Shown here: piece by piece, positions 14,699-63,875 of the stretch
Layout of the letters: each line of letters starts with the position of its first letter
Numbering within the stretch: position 1 is the stretch's first letter
From: Trueperaceae bacterium
GTDB lineage: Bacteria > Deinococcota > Deinococci > Deinococcales > Trueperaceae
Length of the DNA stretch: 64,000 bases
Assembly (NCBI GenBank): GCA_965213925.1
Contig: CBDCAM010000001.1
Span: 1-64,000 of the forward strand
Direction: 5' to 3'
Notes under the pieces: model-generated
The model's input: only the letters and a program-made list of their open reading frames with translations
Told to the model about the DNA's origin: nothing
Database searches by the model: none
Made by a program: the position numbers and the translations under genes

Positions 14699-15415
14699 TT
14701 ACGTGGCTCCCACCTCCATATACTCGGACGTGCTACTTGCTTTGAGCAGCTCGAGATTATCTATCACTCGGCGAATATGCTCGCGGGCTGCTTCCTCCGT
14801 ATAGTCGCTGTCACGGGCGCGCAGACCATCGAGTATGGCCTCGTGCTCGGTAAGCACGTCTTCGCGAGATCGCTGTACCTGCGTTGCTCGACCCGAAATT
14901 TCTAAGCGCGCAATACTCGAACGGCGGTAAAGTGCAAGCAACTCAGCGGCGATATTTGAGAAGCGAATAAGGTGCGTATTGTGCGACAGTGCGTAAATTT
15001 TCTCATGAAAACGCAAGTCTGCCACCCACAGGGTCATGGCTTTTTCCTCTTTGTCGGCTTCACGCCACACCTTCAAATACTCCTCAAGTTCACACACATC
15101 GGCATCTGTGATGTGCTCGGCGGCAAGCCGACTGGCGAGGGTGTCAAACGCTAAACGGCACTGATAGAGGTCGATCACGCTCTTTAGCGACAGTTGGGCA
15201 ACATAAAACCTGCCACTTTGATACTCGAGTAACCCACGCTCGCGGAGCATGATGAAAGCGTTGCTGACGGGCGTACGACTAACATTGAGGTTGCTGGCGA
15301 CCTCGGACTCCACGAGAAGTGAGCCTGGTCGATAGTCGCCGCTCACAATCTTCTCTTTCAGTAGTTCGTAAATCTGCTCCCCTAGGGTAGGCCCCTTAGA
15401 AACAACGGTATGCAT
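14699..15415 (-). CDS. GntR-family (FCD domain) transcriptional regulator
   Basis: wHTH VSRTPV, DLRFH...SHN and EHEAIL...EH motifs; AAGGAGA RBS. Confidence 0.92.
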   Translation of the reverse strand: MHTVVSKGPTLGEQIYELLKEKIVSGDYRPGSLLVESEVASNLNVSRTPVSNAFIMLRERGLLEYQSGRFYVAQLSLKSVIDLYQCRLAFDTLASRLAAEHITDADVCELEEYLKVWREADKEEKAMTLWVADLRFHEKIYALSHNTHLIRFSNIAAELLALYRRSSIARLEISGRATQVQRSREDVLTEHEAILDGLRARDSDYTEEAAREHIRRVIDNLELLKASSTSEYMEVGAT

Positions 15416-15442
15416 CTATCTCCTTATTTCAGAGTTTAATCA

Positions 15443-15466
15443 TTACATGCTGCATGCAGAATACAA
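15443..15466. promoter_or_regulatory. Candidate GntR operator
   Basis: Minus strand TTGTATTCTGCATGCAGCATGTAA: palindrome CTGCATGCAG plus heptad repeats, lying between the promoter and the gntR start. Confidence 0.55.
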
Positions 15467-15475
15467 CGTTTTGAA

Positions 15476-15504
15476 AGTTTATTCGGTTTTTTGAATATTG
15501 TCAA
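15476..15504 (-). promoter_or_regulatory. sigma70-type promoter of the gntR operon
   Basis: TTGACA (15504-15499), 17-bp spacer, TAAACT (15481-15476). Confidence 0.75.
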
Positions 15505-15667
15505 TAGCCAACTCGCTTACTTTTTTGTATTAACCTCGGATGCTAGGGGATAAGCAACCTTCTCGGACTCGCATCCGAGCACAATCATTGCCGTAAAGTT
15601 CGCCTAGCACGTAAATACCTAAGTTCTCTACATCTTTGAGCGAACGGCTTTGTCTGTATAACAGGGG

Positions 15668-15825
15668 TAGCTGCTAGGGCGAGGTGTGAACCAGGCGTTG
15701 TCTGCCTCTAATGGCTTGAATGTGAGATTTCCCCTCGCCCTTAAGCAGCAAAAAGCGACTCGTTGCTTGATACCAGGCTGCTGACCTAGCTCAATCTGTT
15801 ACAGACGTGCACGAGTCGCTTCACA
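15668..15825 (+). ncRNA. IS110 bridge RNA (target-binding and donor-binding loops); ends approximate
   Basis: Stem 15670-15684/15733-15749 encloses GGCGTTGTC and AATGTGA; stem 15753-15763/15811-15821 encloses ATACCAGGCT and TACAGA; these match the target and donor junctions. Confidence 0.85.
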
Positions 15826-15844
15826 CCACCTTGGGAGGTCGTGC

Positions 15845-16804
15845 ATGTCCAGTATACAGAGGCTCATTACTATCGGTGTTGACCCGCATCCCACCACACA
15901 TACCGCTGCTGCGCTTGACGAGACCGGCAAAGTTTTGGAAAGTCTGACAGTCAGCCACAGCAGCAAAGGACTACAGAAGCTCGAAACGTGGGCGCAGGGT
16001 TTTGAGAAGCGGCGCTGGGCAGTTGAAGGTATCGGCAACGCCTATATCTACCCCTTCGTGGTGTCGTTACTCGGGGAGGGTGAAAAGGTCTTTGCTATCT
16101 CGCCTAATTTGACGAGCCAGTACCGAGCTAGGGGCAACCAGATGAAGAGCGATGAAGTGGATGCGGCTAACGCGGCCCGCGCCCTGCTTGCTAATCCCAC
16201 GCTCGGACCCTACCAACCTTCAGCGCCTCAGAAACAGGCTCAAGAGCTGACCCGGCACTATCAGCGGCTCAGAACCCAACTCAAGGCGAACGAGATGGCG
16301 ATGAAAGAGGTGGACGCAAGCATCAAAGCTCCGCTGCAGAGCGCCATCACGGGCTTGAAACAGGCTCTGGCTACTTTGGAAAAGCAGATGAAGGCTCTTG
16401 CTAAGAAATACGCTGCCCCGCTACTGGCCGAGCGGGGTGTCGGTCCTGTGGTGGCTTCGCTCCTGCTGGCCGAGGCGGGCTCGCCCGAGCGCTTCTCTTC
16501 TCAAGATGCCTTTGCCCTTTACGCGGGTTGCGCTCCCTTATCTAGGAGTTCCGGCAGAACAGCCAGAGTGCAGGTGAACTACAAAGGCAACAGAAGGCTC
16601 AACTACGCTGTTCACGTCGTTGCCTTAAATCGCATGCGGACCGACCAAAGAACTAAGGCCTTTCTAGCGCGTAAGAAAAACGAAGGGAAAACCCAGCGTG
16701 AGGCGATGCGCTGTCTCAAGACTTACATCGCTCGTGAACTTTTCGGGAAACTCAAGCAACTCAATCTACCACCGCTCGTCGCTCTTTATCCTGACGGGGC
16801 TTGA
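15845..16804 (+). CDS. IS110-family DEDD recombinase/transposase
   Basis: IGVD, AVE, KSDEVDA, GVGP, YAGCAP...SSG and GNRRL motifs; GGAGG RBS. Confidence 0.95.
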   Translation: MSSIQRLITIGVDPHPTTHTAAALDETGKVLESLTVSHSSKGLQKLETWAQGFEKRRWAVEGIGNAYIYPFVVSLLGEGEKVFAISPNLTSQYRARGNQMKSDEVDAANAARALLANPTLGPYQPSAPQKQAQELTRHYQRLRTQLKANEMAMKEVDASIKAPLQSAITGLKQALATLEKQMKALAKKYAAPLLAERGVGPVVASLLLAEAGSPERFSSQDAFALYAGCAPLSRSSGRTARVQVNYKGNRRLNYAVHVVALNRMRTDQRTKAFLARKKNEGKTQREAMRCLKTYIARELFGKLKQLNLPPLVALYPDGA

Positions 16805-16868
16805 CAAAGTTATACCAGGCTCACATTAACTCCGCGGTAGTTAGGGTGTCGTGTTAGGGTGGCCTCCC

Positions 16869-17570
16869 GTGAGTAGCGCCCTCTACAAACGCCACCGCTT
16901 CCCCGCTGAGATCATCAGCCACTGCGTCTGGCTCTACCACCGCTTCTGCCTTTCGTTCCGAGACGTTGAGGAACTGATGTTCGAGCGGGGCGTTGTGCTG
17001 AGTTATGAGACCGTCAGGCGCTGGTGTTTGAAGTTCGGGGGTGAGTACGCGGGAAGGCTCAAGCGCCGCAGGGCGCAGCCAGGAGACAAATGGCACGTCG
17101 ACGAGGTTTTCCTGAGCATCAACGGCGAATGGCGCTACTTGTGGCGGGCGGTCGACCAAGATGGCAACACCCTCGACATCCTGGTGACAAAGAGGCGCGA
17201 CAAGCGTGCGGCCAAGCGCTTCTTTCGCAAGCTGCTCCGGGCTCACGCTAAACCGAGGGTGGTTGTCACTGACAAACTACGCAGCTACGGGGCGGCGCTC
17301 AAAAAGCTGTTGCCCAACACCGAGCACCGCCAGAGCCGCTACCTCAACAACCGAGCCGAATGTTCGCACCAGCGGACCAGGCGACGAGAACGGGCGCTCC
17401 AGCGTTTCAAGTCCTCCGGCCACGCCCAACGCTTCCTGTCCGTGTTCGAACCCCTCAACACCCACTTCCGCCCGCCCCGCCACCTCCTCAAGGCCAGCCA
17501 CTATCGTCAGAAGATGCAGGAGTGCTTCTCGGCCTGGCGTGAAGTGACCGAGCAGCAGACAGGAGCCTGA
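16869..17570 (+). CDS. IS6-family transposase
   Basis: YKRHRFP, WHVDE, YLWRAVD, VTDKL and NNRAE motifs. Confidence 0.93.
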   Translation: MSSALYKRHRFPAEIISHCVWLYHRFCLSFRDVEELMFERGVVLSYETVRRWCLKFGGEYAGRLKRRRAQPGDKWHVDEVFLSINGEWRYLWRAVDQDGNTLDILVTKRRDKRAAKRFFRKLLRAHAKPRVVVTDKLRSYGAALKKLLPNTEHRQSRYLNNRAECSHQRTRRRERALQRFKSSGHAQRFLSVFEPLNTHFRPPRHLLKASHYRQKMQECFSAWREVTEQQTGA

Positions 17571-17646
17571 AAAGAGACCCTTTCAGTAGTCGGCGATGGA
17601 GCTTAGCGGTTGCTACAGCAAGTTAATGTGACAAAGCCCCTGCCCC

Positions 17647-18537
17647 GAGACTGTAAAGTTGTGCTGGAGTTATGGCGAACGCCGAGGGGCTGGTACGTCG
17701 AGTTTCATCCCCTACACCGCTCCAGCCGTGGTTCGCAGCTCCGCCGCCAGCCACGAGAAGGTCGCCACCTCTGACTTTGAACGCTCGTGAACCGAACTTG
17801 GTGCGCGCTGATGCGGTGGGCGGACGTCGCCGCGCCGCCTGAGCGAGTTCGATGCCCTCCAGCAAGCGCTGCCCGGTTTCGACAGAGGCTAAGCTGCGCA
17901 TCGGCCGTGTCCGGTCCTTGACCGGGACATGTGAGCGTTCGACCGGCTTGGTGGTGAGCGCCCGCTTACGGTGGAACCCGGTGCGGCGGTGCTTCGCCTT
18001 TGGCGCGTGGCGTTTCATTGCCCGAAGGTAACCACGATGCTTGTCGGTGGTAACCTCGTCGGGCACAACACCGCGGCGTTCAATCGCCTGTTCAGAAAAC
18101 GCTTCGGCGCTCTCCGGGTCGCGTTTCTCGCGCAACAATATGTCCATGACTTGTCCCGTCTCGTCCACGAACCAGCACGAGCCGACCCGCCTGGCGTACC
18201 TCCTTGCCGCTTCGGCTAAGAGCATGCCGAACTTCTGTACCCAGTCCGCTACCGTCTGCTGGGACACGTCCGTTCCACGCTCGGCCAGCCTTCGCGGACG
18301 TTCGCGGCTGAAAGCCGGTAGCGGAAGTACCAGCGTACGGCCATCATAATCACGTCCTGGGGCCAGCGGTGCTTCGTGAAGGGCGTGCCGGTGCGGTCGG
18401 TGAAGCTGTGCCTGCACGCCGAGCAGCGGTAGCGCTGTTTCTTGGCGCGGTCTCGTCCGTCTTTATGGGTCCTGGTGCTTGAGCAGTGGGGGCAAGCTGG
18501 CATGCCCGACCCTACCCCAGCACAACTTTGCAGTCTC
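17647..18537 (-). mobile_element. Degenerate IS6-family element (zinc-ribbon type); transposase from ATG 18503 is frameshifted and internally deleted
   Basis: 21-bp IRs GAGACTG(T/C)AAAGTTGTGCTGG at 17647-17667 and 18517-18537; CPHC...CSAC N-terminus; frameshift near 18295; WFVDET joined directly to GQVMDIL. Confidence 0.82.
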
Positions 18538-20062: not shown

Positions 20063-20684
20063 GGCCTTGTCACGTTAACTTCTTCTAACCACGCTAATTA
20101 GGGTTTTCTGGTGTAAACAGGCACGTCTACTTATGCGGGTGCTGCCAGCTCGGCAACTTCACCCCAGATCGAGAACCGCTCGCGCATCTTCTGGCGGTAA
20201 TAGCTAGCTTTGAGGAGGTGGCGGGGCGGGCGGAAGTGGGTATTGAGGGGTTCGAACACGGACAGGAAGCGCCCTGCATGGCCGGAGGACTTGAAGCGCT
20301 GGAGCGCCCGTTCTCGTCGCCTGGTCCGCTGGTGCGAACACTCAACCCGGTTGTTAAGGTAGCGGCTCTGGCGATGCTCGGTCCGGGGCAACAGCTCTTT
20401 AAGCGCCGCTCCGTAGCTGCGTAGTTTATCCGTAACAACCACCCTCGGTTTAGCGTGAGCCCGGAGCAATTTGCGAAAAAAGCGCTTGGCCGCACGCTTA
20501 TCGCGCTTGCTCGTCACCAGGATGTCGAGCGTGTTGCCTTCTTGATCCACGGCCCGCCATAAGTAGCGCCTTTCACCGTTGATGCTCAAGAAAACCTCGT
20601 CGACGTGCCATTTGTTTCCTGGTTGCGCCCTGCGACACTTGAGCCTCCTTGCATGTTCGCCCCCGAACTTCAAACACCAGCGCC
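20063..20684 (-). mobile_element. 5'-truncated IS6 copy, close paralog of the 16869-17570 transposase
   Basis: Near-identical protein from KFGGE onward (ORF 20131-20673); IR GGCCTTGTCACGTTAAC at 20063-20079. Confidence 0.88.
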
Positions 20685-20760
20685 GTCGTTAACGCTTGAG
20701 CGTAGCGCACCTGCCCCAGCTAGAGTAGGAATGTGCCAGTCTGGTACAGGCTCTAAGGCC

Positions 20761-21694
20761 GGTTCTGGCAGGACTCGTTATGGGAGCGTGTTAGCCTTGC
20801 CCGATGACCTGCCCCCACTGCTCCCATGACCAGACAAGAGACCTCCAACAACCAACGAAACTCGGTTATAAACGCTACCGCTGTGATGGCTGCGGTAGGA
20901 CGTTTAACGAGAGAACGGGGAGCGCTTACAACTTTCTCGAGTTTCCGACCGACATCGTGCTGCTCGTGGTTCTTTGGCGGCTCAGGTATAACCTCACGCT
21001 TAGAGACCTCTCCGAGATGTTTCTGGAGCGAGGCTTTGTATTTACCCATGAAGCGGTCAGGGAATGGGAGAGGCGTTTCGCCCCTATCATGGCCGAGGAG
21101 CTGAGGAAACGGCGTAGCGGCAACCGGGCTAAGAAGTGGCATGTGGACGAGACGTATCTGAAGGTCAAGGGCAAGTGGTGCTACCTCTACCGAGCTACCG
21201 ATAAAGAGGGCAACCTTGTTGACGTGTGGCTGAGCAAAAAGCGCGATATGGAGGCGGCCAAGCGGTTCTTCGAGAAGGCGCGCTCTACCGCAGGCGAACC
21301 TCCCGAAAAGGTCACCACCGACGGTCATGACGCCTATCCTCGCGCTGTTCGAGAAACGCTGGGAGAGAAGGTTCAGCACCGCACCAGCCGCTACCTGAAC
21401 AACCGGCTCGAGCAAGACCACAGAGGTATCAAGGGTCGCTATAAGGGAATGCGAGGCTTCAAGAACTTCAACTCCGCCTCAAGGTTCTGCAACGCCTATG
21501 ATGGATTAAGGGACTACTTCAGGCCGCGAAGCCGTCCTTACGAAACTCTACCCCTTCCCGAGCAGCGCAGCCTCTACCTCACAAGGACGCAGTCGCTGAT
21601 GGCTGCTGTGGGAGGAATGTAGCCAGGCGTTTTTGGTGAAGCAGAGAAATGAAGTGTCCGCTCTGCTTCTGCCTGAGCCAGTTCTGACAGAACC
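20761..21694 (+). mobile_element. IS6-family element
   Basis: IRs GGTTCTGGCAGGACT / GGTTCTGTCAGAACT (13/15 match). Confidence 0.8.
20804..21622 (+). CDS. IS6-family transposase with N-terminal zinc ribbon
   Basis: CPHC...CDGC, WHVDETY, YLYRA.D, TTDG and NNRLEQDHR motifs. Confidence 0.92.
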   Translation: MTCPHCSHDQTRDLQQPTKLGYKRYRCDGCGRTFNERTGSAYNFLEFPTDIVLLVVLWRLRYNLTLRDLSEMFLERGFVFTHEAVREWERRFAPIMAEELRKRRSGNRAKKWHVDETYLKVKGKWCYLYRATDKEGNLVDVWLSKKRDMEAAKRFFEKARSTAGEPPEKVTTDGHDAYPRAVRETLGEKVQHRTSRYLNNRLEQDHRGIKGRYKGMRGFKNFNSASRFCNAYDGLRDYFRPRSRPYETLPLPEQRSLYLTRTQSLMAAVGGM

Positions 21695-63042: not shown

Positions 63043-63875
63043 GGTTGCGTCAAGTTGTTTGAGATGAGGTGACGTCTAGCTACGGCGGCCCGCTGCATCT
63101 GTAGCCCTTGCGGCCTTTTCTAGGAAGCTGACAGCGACAGCTCTGCCCATACCCCAAAATCGCTCGTCCAGTTGCGGCGGCGTAGGTTGGCGGGTGTGCG
63201 GGCACGGGTGTAACGGAAGAGATGGTTGACCTCGGCGTGGGTAAAGAGAAAACTTTGGGCACGACCCGAACCTCTAAAGCCTCGTTGCTGTCGTTCTTGG
63301 TCTCGCGTCGGCCGGTGGCTCTGCTCGACGAGGTTGTTCTGGCGCTCCGCCGCCGAGACGGTGACGTGCTCCGTCGCGCCTAGCTCGGGCAGCTCTCGAA
63401 GGGCAGCACCATAGCTCCTAAGGCCGTCGGTCACGATCTGCTCGGGGACATCTTGCTCGTCCAGCAGTCTGCGGAAAAAGCGCTTGGCCGCCTCTGTGTC
63501 ACGCTCCTTTTGCATGAACACGTCCAGCACCTCGCCATGCTCATCCACTGCCCGCCAGAGCCAATGGACCACACCGCCTAGCACTATACGCATCTCATCC
63601 AGGTGCCACGTCCTACCCCGCCTCGGCTTACGCTGACGCAGCGCCTCGGCTATGGCGGGTCCGAACCTGGCGCACCACGCCCTTACCGTCTCGTGACTCA
63701 CATCAACGCCCCGCTCGAAGAGCAGCTCCTGCACGTCCCTATACGAAAGCAGAAAGCGGTGGTAGAGGTAGACCGCATGCGAGATGACCGCTTTGGGGAA
63801 GCGGTAGCCCTTGGGTCGTTCGGCACTCTCGGTCATTGGGGCAGCCTAACCCATCTCAAACAACTTGACGCAACC
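63043..63875 (-). mobile_element. IS6-family element
   Basis: Perfect 24-bp IRs GGTTGCGTCAAGTTGTTTGAGATG at 63043-63066 and 63852-63875. Confidence 0.92.
63120..63836 (-). CDS. IS6-family transposase
   Basis: GYRFP, WHLDE, WLWRAVD, VTDGL and NNLVEQSH motifs. Confidence 0.92.
   Translation of the reverse strand: MTESAERPKGYRFPKAVISHAVYLYHRFLLSYRDVQELLFERGVDVSHETVRAWCARFGPAIAEALRQRKPRRGRTWHLDEMRIVLGGVVHWLWRAVDEHGEVLDVFMQKERDTEAAKRFFRRLLDEQDVPEQIVTDGLRSYGAALRELPELGATEHVTVSAAERQNNLVEQSHRPTRDQERQQRGFRGSGRAQSFLFTHAEVNHLFRYTRARTPANLRRRNWTSDFGVWAELSLSAS

Follow-up and report, generated by a model that had tools for sequence, protein, structure and literature searches.

A canonical-type IS110-group insertion sequence in the terminal repeat of an IS6-family element, with predicted bridge-RNA guides that match the occupied site

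By joining the reconstruction of an insertion site with RNA fold conservation, guide–flank covariation and the surroundings of related loci, we describe here an insertion sequence (IS) of the IS110 group that lies inside the left terminal inverted repeat of an IS6-family element in a Trueperaceae bacterium (GenBank assembly GCA_965213925.1, contig CBDCAM010000001.1, positions 1 to 64,000; this 64-kb stretch is the window referred to throughout). The element is very probably a canonical IS110-group bridge-recombinase IS that was inserted by RNA-guided, site-specific recombination into the IS6 repeat. It shares its mechanism and architecture with the bridge-RNA elements of the IS110 group, agreeing with them in every membership feature that lends itself to testing, and IS6 terminal repeats as a class of IS110 target appear undescribed. 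An original prediction, made from the sequence of the window, had proposed a bridge RNA programmed for the very IS6 repeat that the element occupies, and this proposal is now supported by covariation in the RNA fold, by covariation of the loop 1 guides with their flanks and by the position of four relatives in IS6 ends. To it our analysis adds a conserved split promoter and the recurrence, across phyla, of IS6 ends and IS3-family genes as targets. Since an empty copy of the target lies 800 bp away in the same IS6 element, every guide–target pair can be read directly.

Removal of 15655-16822 in silico joins 15646-15654 to 16823-16831, and the product is the reverse complement of 17621-17638 over all 18 bp, so that the placement of the IS110 element within the IS6 left repeat, at a TC core, holds in all the coordinates originally proposed. 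The core TC stands at 15653-15654 and again at 16821-16822, a single short core repeated at both junctions, and the element 15655-16822 has neither terminal inverted repeats nor a target duplication beyond this core, as is the rule for the IS110 group. Within the window, the restored 18-mer recurs without mismatch only at 17621-17638 (minus strand) and once with two mismatches, at 20063-20080, with 0.02 matches expected by chance. The interrupted element in turn has the features of the IS6/IS26 family, namely a single DDE transposase of about 240 aa (16851-17570; 234 bits against NF033587, cut-off 125), a length of about 0.8 kb, and repeats that begin GG-4N-G, which the available text of PMC8944449 gives as the rule for IS6/IS26 terminal repeats.

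The 319-aa open reading frame (ORF) of the insert is recognized by the NCBIfam model NF033542, “IS110 family RNA-guided transposase” (150.1 bits, cut-off 140), and its closest solved structures are the IS621 transposase (8wt6, E = 6.7e-12) and also the ISCro4 transposase. Residues E61, D103, D106 and S236-G237 align with the catalytic E60, D102, D105 and S241-G242 of IS621, whose mutation abolishes recombination according to PMC11208158, and all of them are invariant in 24 relatives; the nearly invariant D13 would correspond to IS621 D11, a match that has to be extrapolated because the structure alignment starts at residue 36. The description of this 319-aa protein as compact does not stand, its size being ordinary beside the 326 aa of IS621 and an active IS110 of 201 aa that has been reported (bioRxiv 10.64898/2026.08.14.744561, partial text). 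From the left end to the ATG there are 190 noncoding nucleotides, with only 18 after the stop codon, which assigns the element to the IS110 type, with its long noncoding region upstream of the gene, and not to the IS1111 type, in which that region lies downstream (PMC11187229, in the text available).

Comparative evidence comes from relatives of this recombinase. Of 8000 candidates scored in a protein search, 737 qualified as relatives at E <= 0.001; the best, P0001, is 94% identical, and 13 more (P0001-P0014 in all) are 76-86% identical, all on short metagenome contigs and some labeled at source as Deinococcota, Truepera or Chloroflexia. A scan of genome contigs gave 19 loci (numbered here with the prefix L) at 37-53% identity, from Deinococcota, Acidobacteriota, Chloroflexota, Actinomycetota (Rubrobacteraceae) and Lentisphaerae metagenome-assembled genomes (MAGs), with no relative above 53% in that scan, and a tblastn search of a plasmid collection added four loci on plasmids of Deinococcus sp. 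QL22 at 44-46% identity, for a total of 23 related loci. The left end in the window aligns with the 230 nt that precede the gene in 16 of the 19 genome loci; L002 and L004 have no left end there, and that of L017 lies 1.6 kb further upstream. The relatives conserve the points at which the left end starts and the right end stops, the donor guides, the GTCTGC at the close of the left target guide and a TTGAC motif in the right end.

The left end folds, over 15660-15825, as a pair of long stem-loops, both of which contain an internal loop and a small inner hairpin, at -64.3 kcal/mol (z = -3.5; 0 of 200 shuffles as stable), and the two long stems proposed earlier are thereby borne out. From an alignment of 16 left ends, that of the window and those of 15 loci (L015, a near-duplicate of L014, and L002, L004 and L007, which have no whole left end, were left out), RNAalifold predicts the same two stem-loops. 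Compensatory changes are found in 21 of the 28 pairs, compared with 12.1 pairs changed on both sides in shuffles, and in 12 of 12 pairs of the outer stem of stem-loop 1. The cells paired in the consensus fold amount to 90.1%, against 74.8% in shuffles and 28-48% when the partners are slid by 1-3 columns, and 0 of 500 shuffles reach the observed value in any of five consensus-fold measures; the consensus structure is taken from the tested alignment itself and is thus somewhat favored, but the slid controls still leave a wide margin. No family in Rfam 15 matches the left end (15655-15844) at E <= 1, and a scan of 15000-18500 at the same threshold returns just two weak chance hits, both outside the left end. 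Within 15655-15850 an alternative pairing of 15804-15819 with 15830-15849 can take the place of stem 2, and it may represent a switch between bridge RNA and mRNA leader, or else a folding artefact.

The four guide segments lie in the two internal loops where the original prediction had placed them, and each matches the DNA with which it would pair; in loop 1, for example, AATGTGA at 15719-15725 is the exact reverse complement of 16821-16827. Among 20000 dinucleotide-preserving shuffles of the left end (15663-15844), an equally good match arises in 698 for the left target guide, 164 for the right target guide, none for the left donor guide and 598 for the right donor guide, and in none are all four matched together. 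Relatives carry a conserved CAGAC at the position of the right donor guide. The proposed IS621-type layout of left and right target and donor guides is likewise upheld, in that positions and arms agree with the IS621 rules as set out in PMC11208160: loop 1 addresses the target and loop 2 the donor, the core lies within each pairing, and the partner is the bottom strand for the 5' arm, over 8-9 nt, and the top strand for the 3' arm, over 4-7 nt.

The guide–target covariation check that had been proposed was run on the relatives. When the 9 nt ending at the conserved core position of each loop 1 arm are compared with the element's own flank, L001 matches at 9/9 on the left and 9/9 on the right, L009 and L012 at 9/9 on the left, and L005 at 7/9 on the left. 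In a permutation test restricted to the 7 non-core positions (20000 permutations), the left target guides of 13 elements give 67 of 91 own-flank matches (permutation mean 36.5) and the right target guides of 10 elements give 58 of 70 (mean 29.9), with 0 of 20000 permutations reaching the observed value in either case, although the related pairs L009/L014 and L016/L018 were kept and the rows are thus not fully independent. Left out of the left-guide test were L003, with 6 nt of flank on its contig, and the near-duplicates L012, L015 and L019; left out of the right-guide test were L015 and every element with its right end off the contig. The donor guides are nearly invariant in the relatives, so that loop 2 affords no test of this kind.

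Joining the right end of the window element to its left end in silico creates TTGACA-N18-TATAAC, with 11 of 12 matches, and wherever both ends are present, in 11 of 11 elements, the same split promoter is recognizable by sequence match at 10-11 of 12 positions. IS621 rebuilds a sigma-70-type promoter at its circle junction in the same manner, as reported in the parts of PMC11208158 and PMC11208160 available. For the integrated copy, the promoter scan lists none upstream of the left end and no good -35 box is seen by eye at 15630-15640; without a comparable -35 box in the integrated state, the bridge RNA and the recombinase would be expected to be made mainly from the excised circle. We hypothesize that the IS110 element excises as a circle, that the right–left junction then joins the -35 to the -10 box and would drive transcription of an RNA of about 155 nt, with ends as predicted in Table 1, together with the recombinase gene, and that this RNA would form two stem-loops with internal loops, of which loop 2 would pair with the element's own joined ends. 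The DEDD/Ser recombinase, presumably active, would then exchange strands at the TC core. The specified target of about 16 nt would be a terminal repeat conserved within a group of IS6-family elements, and for this reason the landing site would be one that is repeated, mobile and harmless to the host. Because the insert splits the outer 9 bp off the IS6 end, that end should be disabled until the IS110 element excises.

Table 1. Features of the IS110-group element, its predicted RNA and the interrupted IS6-family element, in positions of the window
Feature	Position	Strand	Basis or detail
IS6-family element with interrupted left terminal repeat	15646..17638	+	Terminal repeats and transposase family; 825 bp without the insert
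Outer 9 bp of IS6 left repeat: left target (7 nt) plus core TC	15646..15654	+	GGCTTTGTC
IS110-group insertion sequence, 1168 bp, right-hand core copy included	15655..16822	+	In-silico excision restores the repeat exactly
TATAAC, -10 half of circle-junction promoter	15657..15662	+	
Predicted bridge RNA, about 155 nt	15669..15825	+	Ends inferred: 5' from the -10 box, 3' from where stem 2 ends
Stem-loop 1, target-binding loop	15670..15749	+	Outer stem 15670-15684 with 15732-15749; consensus helices 1-4
Left target guide	15694..15702	+	GGCGTTGTC; identical to 15646-15654 (left target plus core) at 8/9
Inner hairpin of stem-loop 1	15704-15706 with 15713-15715	+	GCC with GGC
Right target guide	15717..15725	+	8/9 to the reverse complement of 16821-16829, last 7 exact
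Stem-loop 2, donor-binding loop	15755..15819	+	Outer stem 15755-15766 with 15808-15819; consensus helices 5-7
Left donor guide	15770..15779	+	ATACCAGGCT; identical to right end 16812-16821, 10/10; position conserved in relatives
Inner hairpin of stem-loop 2	15780-15790	+	
Right donor guide	15800..15805	+	TACAGA; reverse complement of 15653-15658 (core plus first 4 nt of left end), 6/6
Ribosome-binding site of recombinase gene	15833..15838	+	GGGAGG
Recombinase gene, 319 aa, DEDD RuvC-like and Tnp domains	15845..16804	+	PF01548 and PF02371
TTGACA, -35 half of circle-junction promoter	16801..16806	+	Overlaps the recombinase stop codon
Inner 9 bp of IS6 left repeat: right target	16823..16831	+	ACATTAACT
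IS6-family transposase gene, 239 aa	16851..17570	+	NCBIfam NF033587, PF13610
IS6 right terminal repeat	17621..17638	-	Exact unoccupied copy of the target; empty-site control

The surroundings of the relatives show that the window element is not alone in its choice of site. A scan of 143 flank ORFs places an IS6-family transposase gene immediately past the right end of L001 (on the same strand) and of L005, L014 and L015 (on the opposite strand), and NCBIfam confirms these genes, the fragment beside L014 scoring 121 bits, just below the cut-off of 125. The four loci come from Deinococcota and Acidobacteriota. A second IS6 repeat is present with 2/18 mismatches for L001 and 4/18 for L014 and, more diverged, can be made out by eye for L005; an automatic search allowing up to 5 mismatches of 18 was negative for L005 and for L015, whose IS6 element is cut by another element. 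The left end adjoins the outer part of the repeat in the window and in each of these four loci; the insert thus has a fixed orientation with respect to the repeat and can use either IS6 end. One Terriglobia MAG carries both L014 and L015, copies that differ by one base within the repeat and also in the DNA outside it and are thus separate insertions. L009, L012 and L019 likely lie in IS6 ends as well, to judge from their IS6-like left flanks and their guides, the right ends being off the contig or destroyed.

Other relatives have entered genes of a different IS family. L008 (Chloroflexota MAG, 732-745) and L020 (Deinococcus sp. QL22 plasmid, 2313-2326) share one target, which their guides match and which falls within rve_2, the conserved C-terminal part of the coding region, in an IS3-family transposase gene. 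A different IS3-family transposase gene carries L022 between its HTH_21 and rve_3 parts, all three cases coming from a scan of 87 ORFs. None of the four Deinococcus sp. QL22 plasmid loci inspected is in an IS6 end. In a midpoint-rooted recombinase tree of 22 of 24 rows (L016 and L019, with fewer than 200 aligned residues, were dropped), the IS6-occupying elements do not form one tight clade and stand in three places, with a deep support (0.33-0.66) that is too weak to separate an ancestral from a repeated origin of IS6 targeting.

Several observations weigh against the view of the window element as a mobile IS whose bridge RNA chose the IS6 repeat. Extending the folded sequence by 25 nt downstream gives a minimum-energy structure in which a pairing with the ribosome-binding region replaces stem 2; all the evidence on flanks and context comes from relatives at 37-53% identity, none from the 76-94% group; and L013, L016, L018 and L011 match their own left flanks poorly (2, 6, 5 and 6 of 9). 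Each target guide of the window element, moreover, has one mismatch to the occupied site, and across the relatives there is almost no variation, and hence no covariation signal, in the donor guides and in the GTC next to the core. These last two features would suit a site picked mainly by protein–DNA recognition, or by a general liking for GTC-containing repeats, with the guide-like matches a by-product of an element that carries copies of its own ends and of its target. We consider this very improbable, given that the 7 variable positions of both target guides change with the flanks across quite different targets, that compensatory changes maintain the fold whose internal loops hold the guides, and that IS621 with reprogrammed loops changes its target (PMC11208160).

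Belonging to the same set of contrary observations, no second copy of either IS110 end was found within the 64-kb window, which makes the element single-copy there, and neither the exact copy of the target (17621-17638) nor the near one (20063-20080) is occupied. These facts fit an inactive relic, one that was inserted by the bridge mechanism once and is now immobile, as does the state of many relatives, which are frameshifted or truncated (the reading frame breaks early in the 7 loci L005, L012, L014, L015, L017, L018 and L019) and the want of a good -35 box upstream of the -10 box in the integrated copy. The window element, however, retains a full-length ORF with all catalytic residues, and both its ends, its four guides and both promoter halves are intact; a protein as close as P0001 exists elsewhere and suggests recent spread, and weak expression in the integrated state is normal for the IS110 family. 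An immobile relic is in our estimation unlikely.

A further challenge concerns the IS6 repeat itself. Of the 23 related loci, 4 are in IS6 ends, 3 more probably are, 3 are in IS3 genes, and the rest are unexplained or truncated, at least 8 of these further loci having no recognizable mobile element at the site. The association with IS6 might then be incidental, the lineage targeting any repeated sequence without being a dedicated IS6 parasite, and both the insertions in rve_2 (L008, L020) and HTH_21/rve_3 (L022) coding regions and the weakly supported scatter of IS6-occupying elements over the tree are what this explanation would lead one to expect. On the other side, the guides of the window element specify about 16 nt that are found in the window only in IS6 repeats, and IS6 ends recur as sites in both Deinococcota and Acidobacteriota relatives, whose repeats differ and whose guides follow the differences. 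We judge an incidental association to be a possibility of some substance, though on the doubtful side. The earlier statement that the element “parasitises IS6 ends” accordingly stands for the window element and some relatives and fails for the lineage as a whole, and the accompanying forecast that homologs would be flanked by IS6 inverted repeats is borne out, among these relatives at 37-53% identity, for 4 loci and probably for 3 more.

A broader reading would take both kinds of target together. We tentatively suggest, as something only a little short of an even chance, a cross-phylum IS110-group lineage that is parasitic on other ISs, with guides that track diverging IS6 repeats and, in sister branches, a conserved coding motif in the transposase genes of the IS3 family. 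If this is true, the lineage would reversibly disarm the IS that it occupies while riding on its copy number and mobility, and would amount to an “anti-transposon” layer that is natural and programmed by RNA. That IS6 ends and IS3 genes both recur among the targets suggests that predation of one mobile element on another may be common in this lineage, which bears on the control of IS populations.

Comparison with known systems places the window element close to IS621 of Escherichia coli, the archetype of the IS110-group bridge RNA (structures 8wt6-8wt9). The two share a recombinase with DEDD RuvC-like and Tnp domains (319 aa here, 326 in IS621), a noncoding RNA in the left end upstream of the gene with two internal loops, target first and donor second, a 2-nt core, and a sigma-70-type promoter rebuilt at the circle junction. 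In contrast, the proteins are only distantly related (at the E value of 6.7e-12 given above), the core is TC in place of CT, the right target guide is longer (7-9 nt versus 4 in wild-type IS621), the predicted RNA is shorter, with no separate 5' stem-loop evident, and the natural target is an IS6 terminal repeat where that of IS621 is a repetitive extragenic palindromic (REP) sequence.

The occupation of one mobile element's end by an IS110-family element has precedents. IS4321 and IS5075 reportedly insert into Tn21-family transposons, within their terminal inverted repeats, an account that goes back to Partridge and Hall in 2003, and IS1383 of Pseudomonas putida H is said, following Muller et al. 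in 2001, to integrate into the inverted repeats of IS1384. Like the window element, IS4321 and IS5075 are IS110-family members that are site- and orientation-specific inside the terminal inverted repeat of another transposon, and the available part of PMC11187229 shows the IS4321 target in Tn21-type repeats as a logo; they differ in belonging to the IS1111 group, where the guide RNA region lies downstream of the gene and the subterminal repeats are long (PMC11187229), and in having as target a 38-bp Tn3-family repeat. IS1383 resembles the window element as an IS110-family member with another IS's inverted repeat as its target, and differs in host and in target IS; it probably belongs to the other (IS1111) subgroup, Durrant et al. 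citing the paper under IS1111 subterminal repeats. ISPpu9, ISPpu10 and other REP-targeting IS110 elements also have a bridge RNA and, as the window element does, home to a short sequence that is repeated in the genome, but their target is a host REP or intergenic repeat and not the end of a mobile element.

The original prediction had known of no described example. The targeting of transposon repeats is known from IS4321/IS5075 and IS1383, whereas an IS110-family element in an IS6/IS26 repeat was not found in a full-text literature search or in the accessible parts of the seekRNA paper, a 2026 preprint on IS110 cargo and an IS6 review, with the proviso that the supplementary target tables of PMC11208160 and PMC11187229 may list such cases. 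The element thus widens the list of natural IS110-group targets to IS6-family terminal repeats and offers a very legible natural example of bridge-RNA targeting, a neat case for the specialist and not a surprise, which leaves the known mechanism unchanged. The IS6 family includes IS26, an important agent in the spread of resistance genes; the IS6 elements described here are environmental, and their repeats differ from those of IS26. For builders of tools, the element represents a TC-core system with a long natural right target guide.

The region around the interrupted IS6 element is rich in insertion sequences. The 8 bp that flank this element on either side (15638-15645 and 17639-17646) differ, so there is no target-site duplication of the IS6 element, as is often seen in the IS6 family, and this fits a history of cointegrate or recombination events. 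A second IS6-family copy lies at 20063-20685 on the minus strand, with a transposase fragment (20149-20685) that is 90% identical to the first copy and is without the first 55 codons; its terminal repeat at 20063-20080 is empty and departs from the occupied target at 2/18 positions. Three more IS6-family transposase genes or remnants, at 17848-18288 (-), 20804-21622 (+) and 63135-63812 (-), are 30-47% identical to the first copy, and one of them adjoins the right repeat of the interrupted IS6 element.

Some relatives depart from the usual length of 1137-1174 bp. L014 and L015 (2813-4275) measure 1463 bp and L017 (1392-3938) 2547 bp, all with broken reading frames, and they presumably carry internal insertions or duplications. 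L004 (3001-3858) holds, in the same Terriglobia MAG, the recombinase gene of L014 and L015 in a third copy; it has no recognizable ends and a phage-integrase-type ORF upstream, and is probably rearranged. Directly upstream of the left end of L011 (498-1745) stands a different IS110-family transposase gene, and one IS110 element may here have inserted next to, or into, another.

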